From: Coraliomargaritaceae bacterium
GTDB lineage: Bacteria > Verrucomicrobiota > Verrucomicrobiia > Opitutales > Coraliomargaritaceae
Length of the DNA: 64,000 bases
Assembly: GCA_965656495.1 (NCBI GenBank)
Contig: CBFHKU010000004.1
Coordinates: 32,001 to 96,000, forward strand
Direction: 5' to 3'
The position numbers and the translations under genes were made by a program. Below are positions 29,412-46,623 of this stretch, piece after piece. How positions within the stretch are numbered: position 1 is the stretch's first letter; every line of letters begins with the position of its first letter. The notes under the pieces were generated by a model. That model did no database searches, was not told the DNA's origin, and saw only the letters and a program-made list of their open reading frames with translations.

Positions 29412-29848
29412 CATTCGTGCTTATTCGTTTCTATTCGTGGTTACCTTCAGTGTTCGGTGTTTAATGTTCGAGGTTCAATGTTCGAGATTCAGCGTTCGGC
29501 TATCGCGCTACTGCTTTTCAAGCCACGAAAAGCGACAGGATTGTCGCTTCCACGTTTAATCTTATTCGTTTCTATTCGTAGTTAACCTTCGGCGTTCGAC
29601 CTCCCCGACTGCTTTCCGACCGCACGAAAAGCGACAGGATTGTCGCTTCCACGTTTAATCTTATTCGTTTCTATTCGTGGTAAACCTTCAACGTTCGGTG
29701 TTCAATGTTCGAGGTTCAGCGTTCGGCTATCGCGCTACTGCTTTCCGATACCACGAAAAGCGACAGGATTGTCGCTTCCACGTTTAATCCCATTCGTGCT
29801 TATTCGTTTCTATTCGTGGTTAAGCTTCAGCGTTCGGCTATCGCGCTA
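29412..29848. repeat. Composite tandem array of ATTCG 10-mer arms, gttcRa heptamers and three REP-like palindromes
   Basis: Four ttattcgtttctattcgt arms; aagcgacaggattgtcgcttccac at 29530, 29629 and 29758; ttcagcgttcggctatcgcgcta three times, the last ending on the uvrB stop. Confidence 0.9.
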
Positions 29849-41027: not shown

Positions 41028-41393
41028 CTAGAGGCGATAGGGTTCGCGAATGTCGGGCCACTCCGCCTTGAAATCTTTGACATTGCGCGTGAGCAGGGCG
41101 CAACCCAATTGCCGCGCAGAGGCATAGACGATGGCATCGGGTAGCTTGAGTTTTTTCTCGCGGCGCAGGTGAACGGCGCGCTCGGAAACCGCCGTATTCA
41201 ACTCCATCGTTTTAAAAGCCGCGAGGAATCTACGCACAATGACCGCTTCTTCGGGCGACTCAACTCCTGCCAGCACCTCCATGAAAGTTATCACGCTGAT
41301 CCATTTTTCCTCGTAACGCTCCACCTCCGCAGCGGCCTGCGGAATGCCCTTCAGATAGTCGATGAGGATGTTCGTGTCGAAGACCGCCCTCAT
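41028..41393 (-). CDS. vapC: VapC-family PIN-domain toxin
   Basis: VFDTNILID, SVITFMEV, LKLPDAIVYASA, LLTRN.KDF. Confidence 0.9.
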   Translation of the reverse strand: MRAVFDTNILIDYLKGIPQAAAEVERYEEKWISVITFMEVLAGVESPEEAVIVRRFLAAFKTMELNTAVSERAVHLRREKKLKLPDAIVYASARQLGCALLTRNVKDFKAEWPDIREPYRL

Positions 41394-41614
41394 TCCTGTT
41401 TCCATTCATTCCTCAAGCGTGCCTGATAATTTAAAGCATCAGTTTTTTTGTCTTTCCAAATTCCGTATGCGGCCTGCGAGTCCTGCACCGCCAGTGCCCC
41501 GGTGTAAGCTTCCAATGCTTCACGAATGAGCGCCGCACGCGAACAACCGCGCTCCTCACGTTCTGAATCCAAAACTGCGAGCACCGACTCCGGTATATCG
41601 ACTATCGTTCGCAT
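41390..41614 (-). CDS. CopG/RHH antitoxin (VapB-like)
   Basis: MRTIVDIP...LD......SRAALIREAL; ATGA overlap with vapC. Confidence 0.85.
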   Translation of the reverse strand: MRTIVDIPESVLAVLDSEREERGCSRAALIREALEAYTGALAVQDSQAAYGIWKDKKTDALNYQARLRNEWKQE

Positions 41615-41617
41615 CGT

Positions 41618-41637
41618 GTTATCATGCCACGTTATCA
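41618..41637 (-). promoter_or_regulatory. Possible antitoxin autoregulatory site (TGATAAC direct repeat)
   Basis: gttatca at 41618 and 41631, immediately upstream of the antitoxin ATG. Confidence 0.35.
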
Positions 41638-41738
41638 CTTTTCGTCAAGCTTGCATCCGGCAAATCCCGACAAAGCGACTCCCGAAAAGGCTTGAAGCAA
41701 ACGGTGGGAAATCCAGTCTCCTTAATTTCCCATCTTAT

Positions 41739-42839
41739 ATGAAAACTTTGAAATTTGCAGTTCTACCAGGCGATGGCATCGGCCCGGAAGTCATGGATGT
41801 CGCGCTTGATGTCCTCAAAGCGACAGGCGATACCTTCGGCTTTGCGCTCGAATACGAGCACGCTGACATCGGTGGCATCGCCATCGACAACCACGGAGAA
41901 GCTTTCCCAGAGGTCACCAAGAACATCTGTGATGCCAGTGAAGCCATTCTTTTTGGTTCAGTTGGAGGCCCAAAATGGGAAACCCTACCTCCGAAGGATC
42001 AACCCGAGCGCGCCGCCCTCCTCCCAATCCGGCAAGCCTACAAACTCTACGCCAATGTGCGCCCCGGCCTCCTCTATTCCGAATTGACCGACGCCTCCCC
42101 ACTCAAGGCGGAGCGCATCCCCAACGGCATCGACATCGTCTGCATCCGTGAACTCACCGGCGGAATCTATTTCGGGCAACCCAAAGCCACCACCACCCTT
42201 GAGAACGGCGAACAACAAGCAATCGACACGATGGTCTATCAAACCAGCGAAATCGAGCGCATCGCCCAAGTCGCAATCGATACCGCCAAGGCCCGCGGCG
42301 GCAAAGTCTGCTCCGTTGATAAAGCCAATGTTCTCGAAACTTCCGTCCTCTGGCGGCAGGTCGTCACGGAATACTTCGCGAAGCACGCCCCTGAGATTGA
42401 ACTCAGCCACATGTATGTCGACAACGCCGCCATGCAACTCGCGCGTGACCCCAACCAATTCGACGTCCTCTTCACCGAGAATATGTTCGGCGATATTCTC
42501 TCTGATGAAATGGGTGTGATCTGCGGCTCCCTCGGGATGCTCGCCTCCGCCAGTCTCGGCGCGCAAAACAATTCCCTCGGCTTGCCCTTCGGGCTCTACG
42601 AACCCTCCGGCGGTACCGCCCCCGACATCGCCGGACAAGGCATCGCCAACCCCTGCGCCCAAATCCTCTCCGCCGCCATGATGCTCCGTTACAGCTTCGG
42701 CGAAAACGAAGCCGCCGACGCTATTGAAGCCGCCGTTAAAAACGCCGTCACCTCCGGCGTCCGCACCGGAGACATCGCCTTCGGCCTCAAGGCAGTCGGC
42801 ACCCAAGAAATGGGCGCCGCGGTACTCAAAAATCTGTAA
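41739..42839 (+). CDS. leuB: 3-isopropylmalate dehydrogenase
   Basis: LPGDGIGPEV, GSVGGPKW, RELTGGIYFG, VDKANVL, NMFGDILSDE, GTAPDIAGQGIANP. Confidence 0.97.
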   Translation: MKTLKFAVLPGDGIGPEVMDVALDVLKATGDTFGFALEYEHADIGGIAIDNHGEAFPEVTKNICDASEAILFGSVGGPKWETLPPKDQPERAALLPIRQAYKLYANVRPGLLYSELTDASPLKAERIPNGIDIVCIRELTGGIYFGQPKATTTLENGEQQAIDTMVYQTSEIERIAQVAIDTAKARGGKVCSVDKANVLETSVLWRQVVTEYFAKHAPEIELSHMYVDNAAMQLARDPNQFDVLFTENMFGDILSDEMGVICGSLGMLASASLGAQNNSLGLPFGLYEPSGGTAPDIAGQGIANPCAQILSAAMMLRYSFGENEAADAIEAAVKNAVTSGVRTGDIAFGLKAVGTQEMGAAVLKNL

Positions 42840-42844
42840 TCATT

Positions 42845-43034
42845 TTAACCACGAATGGACACGAATAATCACGAATTTGAAGGCCCTATTGTACAAGAGG
42901 CGTTTTCGAGATGAATTATCTAAAAATCACTGGCCTCAAAGTTGGCCTTATTTTAAACTTCAAGCACCCAAAACTTGAGTGGGAACGTCTTATCATTTGA
43001 ACATTCGAGTCTATTCGTGTCCATTCGTGGTTAA
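42845..43034 (+). mobile_element. Internally deleted copy 1 of the GxxExxY cassette (MITE-like, 190 bp)
   Basis: Perfect 23-bp IRs ttaaccacgaatggacacgaata / tattcgtgtccattcgtggttaa enclosing the 5' and 3' ends of the GxxExxY ORF. Confidence 0.75.
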
Positions 43035-43140
43035 CTCAATAATCCTTGCCCATGACCTCCGCTGAGATCCGCCAGTCCTTCCTTGATTCCATTTTCACCA
43101 AAAAAATGGGCGTTGCGGTACTCAAAAATCTGTAATCATT

Positions 43141-43574
43141 TTAACCACGAATGGACACGAATAATCACGAATTTGAAGGCCCTCTCGCAAAAGAAGTGTT
43201 TTCGATCGTGGGCGCTGCCTTCGAAGTTTCCAACCAATTGGGCTGTGGTCTTTTGGAAAAACCCTACGAGAACGCTTTAACAGTTGAATTCAAATTGCGT
43301 GAGATTCCCTTTTCCCAACAACCGCGTTTTAAAGTTCATTATAAATCTGTCCCAGTGGGTGAATATATCCCTGACCTCGTTGCCTTTAAAGAAGTTGTGG
43401 TCGACATAAAAACAATAAACCAGATAGGCAATAATGAGCGGGCTCAGATGCTAAATTATCTAAAAATCACCGGCCTCAAAGTTGGCCTTATTTTAAACTT
43501 CAAGCACTCAAAACTTGAGTGGGAACGTCTTATCATTTGAACATTCGAGTCTATTCGTGTCCATTCGTGGTTAA
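43141..43574 (+). mobile_element. Inverted-repeat-bounded GxxExxY cassette (434 bp)
   Basis: 23-bp perfect IRs at 43141-43163 and 43552-43574 (32 bp imperfect); AT-richer than flanks. Confidence 0.75.
43151..43540 (+). CDS. GxxExxY protein (PD-(D/E)xK nuclease-like)
   Basis: GLLEKPY, IPDLV...VVDIK, QMLNYLK, GLILNF; ATG lies inside the left IR. Confidence 0.92.
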   Translation: MDTNNHEFEGPLAKEVFSIVGAAFEVSNQLGCGLLEKPYENALTVEFKLREIPFSQQPRFKVHYKSVPVGEYIPDLVAFKEVVVDIKTINQIGNNERAQMLNYLKITGLKVGLILNFKHSKLEWERLII

Positions 43575-43680
43575 CTCAATAATCCTTGCCCATGACCTCC
43601 GCTGAGATCCGCCAGTCCTTCCTTGATTCCATTTTCACCAAAAAAATGGGCGCCGCGGTACTCAAAAATCTGTAATCATT

Positions 43681-43870
43681 TTAACCACGAATGGACACGA
43701 ATAATCACGAATTTGAAGGCCCTATTGTACAAGAGGCGTTTTCGAGATGAATTATCTAAAAATCACCGGCCTCAAAGTTGGCCTTATTTTAAACTTCAAG
43801 CACCCAAAACTTGAGTGGGAACGTCTTATCATTTGAACATTCGAGTCTATTCGTGTCCATTCGTGGTTAA
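43681..43870 (+). mobile_element. Internally deleted copy 2 of the GxxExxY cassette (190 bp)
   Basis: Same IRs and same deletion junction (ttttcgagatgaattatc) as 42845-43034. Confidence 0.75.
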
Positions 43871-43887
43871 CTCAATAATCCTTGCCC

Positions 43888-46623
43888 ATGACCTCCGCTG
43901 AGATCCGCCAGTCCTTTCTCGATTTTTTTGAATCCAAAGCGCACACCTCCGTGCCTTCGGCGTCCCTTATGCCGACTTCCCCGAATCTGCTTTTCACGAA
44001 CGCGGGGATGAATCAGTTTGTGCCTTTCTTCCTCGGTACCGAGAAGGCACCCTACTCGCCGCCGCGCGCCGCTGATACCCAGAAATGCATTCGCGCGGGC
44101 GGTAAACATAACGACCTTGAAGACGTGGGTTATGATACCTACCACCATACCTTCTTCGAAATGCTCGGGAATTGGTCCTTCGGCGATTACTTCAAGGCGG
44201 AGGCGATTGAATGGGGTTGGGAATTGTTAACTCAAGTTTGGGGATTTCCACCCGCCCGTCTTTACGCCACGGTTTACGCGCCCGGCGATGGCGATCCCGC
44301 CGAGTTCGATCAGGAAGCCTACGACCTTTGGAAGGTCTTGTTTGAGAAAGCAGGGCTCGACCCCGAGGTCCATATCATCAACGGCAACAAAAAGGACAAC
44401 TTCTGGATGATGGGTGAAACCGGCCCCTGCGGTCCCTGCTCCGAACTGCATGTTGACCTCACTCCCGAGGGCGACAGCAAGGGCGCCCTTGTGAACATGG
44501 ATTCCGACCTCTGTATCGAGATTTGGAACCTCGTCTTCATTCAATTCAACGCGAATGCCGACGGCACCTTCTCCGATCTTCCCGCCAAGCATGTCGATAC
44601 CGGCATGGGCTTTGAACGCGCCTGCTCCATCATCCAAAACACCAAAGGCCTCACCGATTTCTCGCAGAAACCCACCAACTACGCCACCGATGTTTTTCAG
44701 CCCCTCTTCCGCACCCTCGAATCCCTGAGCGGCAAAACCTATCAGGACATCTACCCCGCCGCCGATACCGAGCCGAGCCAAGCCCTCACCGAAGCGATCG
44801 CCTTCCGAGTGGTCGCCGACCATATCCGCACCCTCGCCTTCTCGATTGCCGACGGCATTCTCCCCGGCAACAACGGCCGCAACTACGTCCTCCGCCGCAT
44901 CCTTCGCCGCGCCGTCAAATACGGTCGCAACCTCGGCTTCGACGGTTCCGAACCCTTCCTCCCGAAATTGGTCGATACCCTCGTCGCGGAATTCAGCGCG
45001 GTCTTCCCGGAAATCAAGACCCGCGCCGCCGCGGTCAAAGAAACCCTCGCCGCCGAAGAAAGCAGCTTCAACAAGACCCTCGATCGCGGCCTCCAACTCT
45101 TTGAAAAGCAATGCCAGGACGGCGCGATCTCCGGCGAAGAAGCCTTCACCCTTTACGATACCTACGGTTTCCCGCTCGACCTCACCGAACTCCTCGCCCG
45201 CGAGCGGGGCCTTGAAGTCGATACCGCCGGTTTTGAAGCCTGCATGGAAACCCAACGCACCCGCGCCCGCGCCGCCCAAAAGAAGACCGTTGTCAAAGCG
45301 ATCGAGCTCGAGACCGACGCCCTCACGGAATTCCTCGGCTTCGATCACGACCACTGCGAGGCTCAAATCCTCGAAGTGCACACTCAGGACGGACAAGCAT
45401 GGATCATCCCCGACAAAACCGTTCTGTTTACCGAGATGGGCGGACAGGACGGCGACTGCGGCAGCCTCGAGATTGAGGGGGCACACTACCCGATTAGCGC
45501 GACCCAAAAAGCCGGTCACGCCGTGGCGCATATTTTGCAAGGCAAACTCCCCGAAGGAATCGCGGCGGGCGCAAAGGTTAAGCTCCACCTCGACCGCGAC
45601 CGCCGGGCGCCCATCGAAGCACACCACACCGCCACCCACCTCTTGCACTGGGCGCTCCATCAGCACGTCTCGCCCGACGCCACCCAGCAGGGCTCCAGCG
45701 TTTCTCCCGAACGCCTGCGCTTCGATTTCAATTCCAAAGCCCTCAATGCGGATCAGCTCGCAGCCCTCGAGACCGCCGTGAACACCTGCATCGAAAAAGC
45801 AGAAACCGTCTCCTGGAGCGAAGTCCCCCACGCTGAAGTCAAGGATCGCGCCGACGTGATGCAATTCTTTGGCGACAAATACGGCGAGCAGGTGCGGGTC
45901 GTTCAAATCGGCGGCACCGCCCATGCCCTCGACGGTTATTCCATGGAATTATGCGGCGGCACCCACGTGCGCAATACCAGCGAAATCGGCCCTTTTAAAA
46001 TAAAATCCGAAGGCGCAATTGCGGCGGGCATCCGTCGCATTGAAGCGCTCTGCGGTAAAGCCGCCGAAGACTACCTCAAGGAACAAGCGGCGCTGGAAGC
46101 AGACGCCAAAGCCCAACAACTTGAAAAAATCGAGCATCTGAACGCCGCGCTAGCGAAGCTCGGCCTCGACCCCCTTAAAATCCCGGCGGAAGCCAGCCCG
46201 GAAGCGCTTAAAGCACTGGCGGTCGAAGCCGACAAAGCGCTCAAGAAGGCACAGGCCTCCGCGGCTGCCGGTCAAGCGAACGCCCTCCTCGACGCTGCCC
46301 GCACCGGCGATAACGGCGTGAAGGTGCTGGTGGCGGTCGTCGAAGCACCCGACCCCAACGCCCTTAAGACCATGACCAGCCACCTCGCCGGACAACTGGG
46401 CGAATCCCTCGTGGTGCTCGGAGCGGCCTTCGATGGCAAAGTAAGCCTTTGCGCCCAGGCGAGTCCCGCCGCGATTGCCGCCGGACACGAAGCCGGCACC
46501 ATCATTCGCGAGCTCACCGGAAAACTCGGCGGCAAGGGCGGCGGCAAACCGAACTTCGCAATGGGCGGCGCCCCCGACAACCGCGCACTCGCGGAAGTCC
46601 TCGCGGCCTTTGAACCGTCCTAG
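43888..46623 (+). CDS. alaS: Alanine--tRNA ligase
   Basis: LLFTNAGMNQF, HHTFFEMLGNWSFGDYFK, GPCGPCSE, DTGMGFER, HHTATHLL, ELCGGTHV, GKGGGK. Confidence 0.98.
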   Translation: MTSAEIRQSFLDFFESKAHTSVPSASLMPTSPNLLFTNAGMNQFVPFFLGTEKAPYSPPRAADTQKCIRAGGKHNDLEDVGYDTYHHTFFEMLGNWSFGDYFKAEAIEWGWELLTQVWGFPPARLYATVYAPGDGDPAEFDQEAYDLWKVLFEKAGLDPEVHIINGNKKDNFWMMGETGPCGPCSELHVDLTPEGDSKGALVNMDSDLCIEIWNLVFIQFNANADGTFSDLPAKHVDTGMGFERACSIIQNTKGLTDFSQKPTNYATDVFQPLFRTLESLSGKTYQDIYPAADTEPSQALTEAIAFRVVADHIRTLAFSIADGILPGNNGRNYVLRRILRRAVKYGRNLGFDGSEPFLPKLVDTLVAEFSAVFPEIKTRAAAVKETLAAEESSFNKTLDRGLQLFEKQCQDGAISGEEAFTLYDTYGFPLDLTELLARERGLEVDTAGFEACMETQRTRARAAQKKTVVKAIELETDALTEFLGFDHDHCEAQILEVHTQDGQAWIIPDKTVLFTEMGGQDGDCGSLEIEGAHYPISATQKAGHAVAHILQGKLPEGIAAGAKVKLHLDRDRRAPIEAHHTATHLLHWALHQHVSPDATQQGSSVSPERLRFDFNSKALNADQLAALETAVNTCIEKAETVSWSEVPHAEVKDRADVMQFFGDKYGEQVRVVQIGGTAHALDGYSMELCGGTHVRNTSEIGPFKIKSEGAIAAGIRRIEALCGKAAEDYLKEQAALEADAKAQQLEKIEHLNAALAKLGLDPLKIPAEASPEALKALAVEADKALKKAQASAAAGQANALLDAARTGDNGVKVLVAVVEAPDPNALKTMTSHLAGQLGESLVVLGAAFDGKVSLCAQASPAAIAAGHEAGTIIRELTGKLGGKGGGKPNFAMGGAPDNRALAEVLAAFEPS

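Follow-up and report, generated by a model that had tools for sequence, protein, structure and literature searches.

Exploring the junction between leuB and alaS in the genome of a marine Coraliomargaritaceae bacterium (GCA_965656495.1; G000, a 31-contig draft of 2.06 Mb), we found a selfish hairpin element, related to known kinds, caught in tandem, in a form that carries the ends of the flanking host genes along and that recurs in other phyla. The window analyzed is a stretch of 64,000 nucleotides of contig CBFHKU010000004.1, and coordinates refer to it unless another contig or locus is named. As assembled, the junction reads D1-spacer 1-F-spacer 2-D3, where F is a full cassette of 434 bp encoding a protein of the GxxExxY family and D1 and D3 are internally deleted elements of 190 bp. 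The compact unit is conserved whole across phyla, it is inserted at operon junctions without target duplication, it decays into deleted forms and lone hairpins, and it can be amplified locally in tandem together with host gene ends. The features of the region are the following (ORF, open reading frame).

41739..42839, plus strand: leuB, 3-isopropylmalate dehydrogenase (from the ORF list; TIGR00169, 469 bits), stop codon at 42837-42839
42845..43034, plus strand: D1, internally deleted cassette of 190 bp, arms at 42845-42876 and 43003-43034
43035..43140, plus strand: spacer 1, 106 bp, with CCATTTT at 43089-43095, the TT variant at 43113-43114 and a chimeric ORF at 43052-43135
43141..43574, plus strand: F, full cassette of 434 bp, arms at 43141-43172 and 43543-43574
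43151..43540, plus strand: GxxExxY / PDDEXK_3 gene, 129 aa, its ATG within the left arm
43575..43680, plus strand: spacer 2, 106 bp, with the CC variant at 43653-43654 and a chimeric ORF at 43592-43675
43681..43870, plus strand: D3, second deleted cassette of 190 bp, one difference from D1 (42932 T, 43768 C)
43888..46623, plus strand: alaS, alanine-tRNA ligase (TIGR00344, 817 bits), ATG at 43888

Anatomy of the array and its chimeric spacers

The arms of D1, F and D3 are alike, forming an inverted repeat that is perfect over 23 nt and 91% complementary over 32 nt. The three sizes, the perfect 23-nt arms, the GxxExxY ORF with its ATG in the left arm and the single-nucleotide polymorphisms (SNPs) between copies had been described in the initial annotation of this DNA, and the coordinates given there hold. 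D1 retains the 19 N-terminal codons of the gene followed by a frame break and the last 29 codons, and its remnant at 42911-42994 matches TIGR04256 positions 89-116. Comparison of D1 and D3 with F revealed that 244 bp of the ORF are gone and that 7 of the 15 positions in the block just before the gap are different, indicating that D is no recent deletion of the present F; the outer copies do share one deletion, as proposed before. The assembled units are distinguished by three sites, namely the TT/CC variants of the spacers, 42932 T/C and 43512 T/C. The right arm of D3 lies only 17 nt from the alaS ATG. The predicted RNA fold joins the arms of F (z -4.4) and of D1 (z -6.8) in both the minimum-energy and the centroid structures, and the predicted stem around F contains the start codon of the GxxExxY gene, in agreement with the stem envisaged in the initial annotation. 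A search against Rfam returned just two sub-threshold look-alikes of miRNA hairpins, and promoter-like and terminator-like sites showed no excess over shuffled expectation.

Each spacer consists of the 17-nt leader and first 12 codons of alaS, about 7 nt of new sequence (CCATTTT) and the final ~47 nt of leuB with its stop codon and 5 nt beyond; the match is exact over 48 nt to the alaS start and over 28-39 nt to the leuB end. This is the layout read earlier as a fusion through a small hairpin junction, apart from the number of alaS codons, which had been put at about 11. Directly after the inserted CCATTTT stands its reverse complement, AAAATGG. The units lie head to tail, and unique sequence from downstream is newly joined to unique sequence from upstream, the arrangement by which a tandem segmental duplication is recognized. 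Spacers 1 and 2 differ solely by TT/CC; relative to the true flanks, both carry changes at two alaS positions, which are synonymous, and at two leuB positions. That the spacers are nearly alike yet diverged from the true flanks fits one old join and a later homologous step. Both spacers carry an in-frame chimeric ORF of 27 codons. Selection of such mini-ORFs for translational coupling was considered for the window and for locus L059 (below) and dropped, as the two cases fit chance (about 1 in 9); weighed against it, too, was that the cassette arms themselves stop two of the three frames.

The junction in independent metagenomes

Logan contigs from four marine metagenome runs of four studies (X1, X4, X6 and X7) were compared with window positions 42700-44000; the stretch was present in no RNA run. 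The junction unitig 43051-43183 (133 nt, TT variant) is present in X6 and X7 and the unitig 43591-43723 (133 nt, CC variant) in X1, each with 0 differences; in X4 the junction is found in shorter pieces that end just ahead of the TT/CC site, and apparently both variants are there. The interiors of F (43154-43483) and of D (43694-43779) were detected in all four runs, again with 0 differences. Given that the junction, F and D are seen in independent runs, we concluded that the duplication junction and the coexistence of F and D are natural and no assembly artefact. The split of junction variants by run fits what is expected from copy-number change by homologous exchange. Depths of F, D and the shared right part were about 1:1:2 in X6 and X7, 1:0.7:1.6 in X1 and 1:1.2:1.7 in X4, contig depth being a poor copy counter in mixed communities, and the D1-specific SNP (42932 T) was not seen in the contigs of the four runs, contigs being prone to lose rare variants. 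Together, the data can be read in two ways: as an array of three units from which homologous exchange removes units, leaving D-F and F-D derivatives, or as an assembly merge of two two-unit haplotypes. Two further forms of the gap in the same samples, a 594-nt replacement and a solo hairpin with the loop GCGCAT, match relatives. Two exact-pattern scans of metagenome contigs, one with the chimeric junction as the pattern and one with the end of leuB followed by the arm, gave no match and so yielded no independent long contig spanning the array.

The leuB-alaS gap in relatives

The gap was extracted from 29 relatives; leuB-alaS synteny is kept throughout the family and the order. In ten relatives the gap is occupied by a GxxExxY cassette or by what is recognizably left of one, the ORF being intact in four (L010, L012, L015, L024), frameshifted in three (L004, L011, L016) and deleted in three (L002, L008, L009). 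Four gaps (L003, L007, L013, L018) hold an ORF of the '23S rRNA-intervening sequence protein' family (TIGR02436/PF05635) between very different arms of the GAACGTCGAAC type, one (L022) has a 132-aa cargo, without match in a family search, between CACAGAG-type arms, and five (L005, L006, L014, L019, L030) have a solo hairpin or an arm remnant alone. No recognizable element was found in the other 9 of the 29, five of which are only 4-11 nt long. The comparison of empty with filled junctions that the initial annotation had proposed yields a gap that varies between empty, filled, solo hairpin and other cargo. None of the outcomes that had been named there as fatal to its proposal, such as collapse of the region to one copy or a fixed arrangement in relatives, was encountered.

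The genome nearest by alaS (G006, 98% at the amino-acid level) has a four-helix-bundle cassette at the gap, G003 (98% by alaS) has a single D whose deletion is identical to that of the window, and G005 has a single F. The chimeric spacer occurs in none of the 29 relatives, and at this gap the tandem form is limited to G000. From the single D in G003, a sister species, it follows that the D form either dates back at least to the separation of the two or was exchanged between them. The 190-bp copies had been called MITE-like (MITE, miniature inverted-repeat transposable element); since this form matches at the leuB-alaS locus alone in G000 and is shared with G003, it is no dispersed non-autonomous element. 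The right 111 nt of D (43760-43870; C-terminal remnant and right arm) are identical in G000 and G003 (L002), the flanking genes of the two are 91-92% identical in DNA, and the left 80 nt of D differ at many positions. The result is a mosaic, suggestive of recent exchange or of constraint.

The GxxExxY protein

The 129-aa product lies above the curated cut-offs of both family profiles, with 129.7 bits against 35 for TIGR04256 and 123.1 bits against 22 for PF13366; these were the sole matches for the cassette ORF in family searches of the window, which detected no transposase family, HUH/Y1 included. The protein keeps G33xxE36xxY39, D75 and D85-x-K87. Across 58 sequences G33, E36, Y39, D75 and K87 are invariant, and residue 85, which is D in the window protein, is D or E in a nine-sequence alignment. 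An AlphaFold2 model made from the 58 sequences reached a pLDDT of 92.7, and its top Foldseek matches were Cas4 SSO0001, lambda exonuclease and Hjc resolvase (probability up to 1.0, TM 0.57 or lower). What the model confirms is a predicted restriction-endonuclease-like PD-(D/E)xK nuclease fold, with no closer assignment; a profile search against PDB sequences gave no match. The protein is under purifying selection, the ratio of nonsynonymous to synonymous change (dN/dS) being 0.12 against G005; against G016 and L039 the synonymous sites are saturated. In G016, 28 of the 30 arm bases are unchanged although synonymous sites are saturated.

The accessible part of a survey of the PD-(D/E)XK superfamily lists PDDEXK_3 with unknown function and many transfers (PMC3424549), and GxxExxY is mentioned in passing in a reverse-transcriptase classifier paper, the accessible text of which does not deal with the repeats (PMC8934634). 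A search of the literature on GxxExxY, PDDEXK_3/PF13366 and PF05635/the intervening-sequence protein, with subscription journals outside it, found no description of the cassette.

A cassette family across phyla

To find relatives of the protein, one genome per species was scanned with a four-sequence alignment and the 80 best loci were kept (L039-L118; 57-73% identity). Their labels include Verrucomicrobiota, Planctomycetota, Lentisphaerota, Bacteroidota, Chlorobiota, Spirochaetota, Acidobacteriota, Nitrospirota, Desulfobacterota and several proteobacterial classes, among others. An inverted repeat linking the start-codon region with the region past the stop was present in 67 of the 80, where arms had to score at least 12 and above 20 shuffles of the right-hand region. 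Termini of the form AACC[AG]C..A[TG] and its complement bracket the ORF in 56 loci, and 29 of these cassettes measure 424-428 bp. The proposal that this is a transposase-free mobile cassette is supported by these marks of horizontal movement, the same arms and ORF being found in many phyla. The cassettes appear to be a widespread family of selfish gene units that is apparently undescribed.

The family arms are 30 nt long and consist of three ACACnAAT boxes spaced 10 nt apart, with the ATG within the left arm (56-67 of 80). Over arm positions 10-29, which the search expression leaves unconstrained, the box positions of the 56 cassettes are nearly invariant in both arms. Agreement between the two arms is just 0.27-0.34 at linker positions 20-21, about chance, and 0.43-0.68 at positions 10-11. 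Since the boxes are kept and the linkers are free to mismatch, it is the box sequence in helical phase that is conserved, beyond mere pairing. Judged by sequence, phased conserved boxes of this kind look like a protein-binding site. Variants of the box are CACGAAT, CACAGAT, CGCGAAT and CACAAAT, and both arms of one cassette share the same variant.

Most members end GG|AACC...GGTT|C, so that the conserved family terminus is AACC...GGTT; the TTAA ends of the earlier description are correct for this locus and local to it, and TTAA as a target site was rejected on the same grounds. A flank repeat of at least 10 nt was absent from 53 of the 56 cassettes, the three exceptions being arrays, and no short target-site duplication beside the ends was visible by eye in the 56 listed flanks. 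Cassettes are co-oriented with their operon: calling the flanking genes crudely by the longest frame puts 47 of 54 upstream frames and 45 of 56 downstream frames on the strand of the cassette. The upstream host frame is stopped by a codon of the left arm in 18 of 50 cases, by TGA or TAA at +9/+10, +16 or +19, counted from the start of the arm. The +9 stop overlaps the cassette ATG as ATGA.

A Pfam run on 105 flanking frames of 54 loci revealed many defence operons as well as housekeeping genes. Type I restriction-modification or RhuM genes flank eight cassettes, an sbcD/sbcC-like pair five, and DUF4391 or a DNA methylase four; BrxL, DUF499, SNF2/ResIII and Schlafen account for one flank each. 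Housekeeping junctions include leuB-alaS in L039 and L040, and purA, GAPDH, lgt, maf and others. The L040 contig, labelled as a Yoonia metagenome-assembled genome, holds leuB-cassette-alaS like the Opitutales loci and may be mis-binned. The sbcD-like/sbcC-like junction is filled in L050, L056, L057, L075 and L080, which have different class or phylum labels and resemble one another in flank sequence; the cause is either targeting of the junction or movement of the entire operon.

Arrays at other loci

At least two left-type and at least two right-type arms within about 2 kb were present at 13 of the 80 loci. In L059, labelled Deltaproteobacteria, F is followed by a deleted unit after a 49-nt spacer in which the start of the downstream gene is joined in frame to the last codons of the upstream gene, the same design as in the window. 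Two hairpin units of L061 are separated by a 164-nt spacer whose last 64 nt are an exact copy of the upstream gene tail, the remainder reading by eye as further upstream coding sequence. A 63-nt spacer recurs four times between F and deleted units in L069, an array whose ends are out of view. L113 has F plus a deleted unit of 187 bp with 9 nt between them. In L084, labelled as a Spirochaetaceae chromosome, nine arm pairs with varied internal deletions and spacers of 8 or 23 nt were detected over positions 1-2168. The distances from breakpoint to arm are about 47 and 57 nt in the window, about 30 and 19 nt in L059 and at least 164 nt in L061, next to the 8-23-nt spacers of L084. L084 also has 122-nt sub-repeats joined at a GGAACC word inside the codons of the GxxExxY motif.

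Arm sites elsewhere in the genome

Chance does not account for the arm motif, of which the 2.06-Mb genome has 39 occurrences against 0 for a reversed control. A genome-wide scan for the arms and their cargo had been proposed in the initial annotation; outside the locus the arms are single and around no gene. Of the five full GxxExxY genes of G000, three (window, C8:35175 and C1:149178) are enclosed by inverted arms of period 10, each gene with arms of its own sequence type. Of the four TIGR02436 genes in the genome, two, at C1:370463-370919 and C3:104976-105552, clearly lie within long inverted repeats (arms of 33 nt and 54 nt) that belong to other repeat types. Among 41 genomes, arm sites number 39 in G000, 47 in G016 and at most 15 in each of the other 39, and G000 and G016 are the two with an intact CACGAAT-armed gene at leuB-alaS. 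Arm count may thus track an intact cognate gene, a lead only, as kin are non-independent and arm types of other genes were left out. Genome-wide recurrence of exact 6-mers (periods 6-15) was swamped by coding periodicity and did not single out period 10; the per-word list did.

Several repeat structures of the same genome were recorded in passing. Window positions 29413-29812 (C4:61413-61812) show an alternation of three arms of the right type, ATTCGTTTCTATTCGTGGTTA, with a palindrome of 26 nt, AAAGCGACAGGATTGTCGCTTCCACG, a unit that recurs in many intergenic islands of G000. Outside the window, C5:168085-169372 is a two-gene segment between composite inverted repeats in which about five short-period modules, a CACGAAT arm included, are mirrored; it looks like nested hairpin elements. 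At C1:93978-94546 a composite repeat island, a CACGAAT arm of the TTAACC type among its parts, is present as a tandem duplication of 541 bp without coding flanks. At C4:135458-136451, also outside the window, the word TCCCCACGCGCGTGGGGA returns every 61 nt about 17 times and looks like a CRISPR array. Upstream of leuB, on the minus strand at 41028-41638, are two small overlapping ORFs that by eye resemble a PIN toxin and its antitoxin.

Discussion

The region is probably the product of a resident selfish cassette, akin to the intervening sequences (IVS) of 23S rRNA genes, that was amplified by one illegitimate join followed by homologous exchange. On this view, two or more units, three in the assembly, would stand in tandem at the tight operon junction of leuB and alaS, each unit deriving from a selfish hairpin-bounded cassette of about 430 bp whose nuclease gene is oriented like the host genes. 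The cassette would have been a long resident of the gap in this Opitutales family, decaying there to frameshifted copies, deletion forms and solo hairpins. A single illegitimate join of alaS codon 12-13 to the leuB end, with a 7-nt templated insertion, would have duplicated the cassette with its flanks, and homologous exchange between the units would since have shifted copy number and mixed old D with intact F. As to how the first duplication arose, we lean slightly towards replication stalled by the inverted repeat, with the nascent strand switching template, and towards homologous recombination for the later steps; the 7-nt inverted insertion at the join fits template switching. The circle with both host flanks that was suggested in the initial annotation is not needed, as a tandem segmental duplication with one illegitimate join yields the same product.

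Several observations weigh against amplification of a resident cassette by join and exchange. The order D-F-D is out of reach from a two-unit array by one unequal sister exchange; it calls for gene conversion, for a looped-out unit that integrates, or for recombination of a D-F with an F-D array. The identity of the right 111 nt of D between G000 and G003 is contrary to a simple vertical history. Depths in X1, X4, X6 and X7 agree with F and D in equal dose rather than at 1:2, so that the three-unit order may be an assembly merge. Elsewhere in G000 the CACGAAT arms are single arms in composite nested inverted-repeat islands, around no gene, so that the link between arms and nuclease rests on other genomes, and G001 has 9 arm sites and a GxxExxY gene was not found there. 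Finally, the cause of the first join is one that we infer.

An assembly merge would mean that strains with D-spacer(TT)-F and strains with F-spacer(CC)-D were threaded into one three-unit path. We regard this as unlikely, if a serious contender: TT alone in X6 and X7, CC alone in X1 and apparently both in X4 point towards it, as do depths near 1:1:2, the D1-specific SNP unseen in four runs and the 31-contig draft, whereas the assembly does separate the three units by TT/CC, 42932 T/C and 43512 T/C, contigs drop rare variants, and depth counts copies poorly in mixed communities. Under a merge, too, the duplication junction and the coexistence of D and F stand. The duplication might instead be driven by the element itself, which is the proposal of the initial annotation put in general terms, the nuclease cutting or nicking both host flanks and fill-in, out-of-register repair or re-integration of a circle adding a copy. 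Flank-carrying arrays do recur in the family (the window, L059 and L061, plus the repeated 63-nt spacer of L069), and the 13 multi-unit loci among the 80 count in the same direction. Moreover, D-F-D is the expected product of a looped-out circle of D and spacer entering the right part of F, one step from D-F. End-joining products often carry short templated insertions, and such an insertion is present at the junction. Nevertheless, breakpoint distances vary between loci, unlike a measured enzymatic cut, and the 53 of 56 single cassettes without a flank repeat of at least 10 nt indicate that ordinary insertion copies no flanks; a circle and a tandem junction look alike in the present data, and we consider an element-driven duplication rather improbable.

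Equally hard to favour is the broader view that GxxExxY cassettes are an undescribed class of autonomous mobile DNA whose protein binds and cuts the boxes, the flank-carrying tandems being footprints of the mobility reaction. A looped-out or circular intermediate, or filled paired nicks, would leave flank-carrying copies, and the arms would supply stop codons to the upstream gene and hide the start codon, permitting life in essential operons at little cost. Least probable by a wide distance is a domesticated regulatory structure, in which hairpins and mini-ORFs are kept to process the leuB-alaS transcript by RNase III or to tune it and the nuclease is a passenger. The 17 nt between right arm and ATG leave no room for an alaS promoter, so that alaS would be read through the stems, the predicted stems are strong, D is the same in two species over its right 111 nt, and both mini-ORFs are in frame. 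Set against this, 5 of the 29 relatives have a gap of 4-11 nt and 9 of the 29 are without an element, indicating that the host has no need of the array; close relatives differ in cargo and arms, the same cassette sits in unrelated operons of many phyla, and promoter-like and terminator-like sites are not enriched.

Two further parts of the resident-cassette reading concern the unit itself. The protein may recognize the phased boxes of its own arms and cut there, giving mobility, which we put forward tentatively. That the arms pair in read-through RNA and hide the AUG, expression then depending on processing or on ribosomes arriving from the upstream gene, agrees with the predicted fold and is offered with more doubt still.

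Comparison with known systems places the unit closest to the ORF-bearing IVS of Leptospira, Coxiella and Xanthomonas (S23p, PF05635), with which it shares a size of about 430 nt, a stem of terminal inverted repeats enclosing a single small ORF, short tandem repeats at the start codon or immediately ahead of it and, through the PF05635/TIGR02436 cassettes of relatives, occupancy of the same leuB-alaS gap. The accessible part of one report describes the Coxiella 23S IVS as having three GACAGAT heptamers and a 28-bp stem (PMC4990558). Unlike the IVS, the window unit lies between protein genes, outside a 23S rRNA helix, its cargo is a PD-(D/E)xK protein (PF13366) instead of the S23p four-helix bundle, its arms hold three phased 8-nt boxes, and it forms a tandem array with host flanks. 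In a REPtron, inverted copies of a short repeat, one also dispersed through intergenic DNA, stand on either side of a RAYT gene; the cassette likewise is a gene flanked by inverted copies of a genome-dispersed repeat (39 sites vs 0 in the control), but it encodes PD-(D/E)xK instead of HUH/Y1 (IS200-like), its arm overlaps the start codon, the cassette itself crosses phyla, and G001 has arms without a found gene. Terminal inverted repeats, internally deleted derivatives and gene-less hairpins (L005, L014) are shared with MITEs and insertion sequences, whereas no transposase family was detected, no target-site duplication was seen and the 190-bp form is undispersed. A lone small nuclease gene between conserved genes, with the same junction filled in distant hosts (the five sbcD-sbcC-like loci), recalls free-standing homing endonuclease genes, which to our knowledge have no conserved inverted arms, unlike the cassette. 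An integron gene cassette has a single attC at its 3' end, with an integron integrase and attI beside the array, whereas the window arms stand on both sides of the ORF. Tandem duplication and amplification in bacteria proceed by formation of a join point and then by RecA-dependent unequal exchange (Roth and Lovett literature). The array shares with such duplications the head-to-tail units with unique flanks and the one join with a short inverted insertion, and it may share copy-number variation between populations, junction variants and depth ratios being different from run to run; it differs in that the segment is just 296-540 bp and centred on a hairpin element, and in that this type of array recurs with the element family.

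GxxExxY (PDDEXK_3) is annotated in very many genomes, and here the gene belongs to a tight unit with phased arm boxes. For annotation, this explains short chimeric ORFs and 'extra' gene starts and ends beside such cassettes. The junction and the F and D forms offer a natural substrate for work on mechanism. Amplification can take the ends of both neighbouring genes along with the cassette, and the recurrence of this in other phyla narrows the possible mechanisms. Built alike, GxxExxY cassettes and the ORF-bearing 23S IVS, a puzzle of long standing, gain a common, testable frame as insertable hairpin cassettes.

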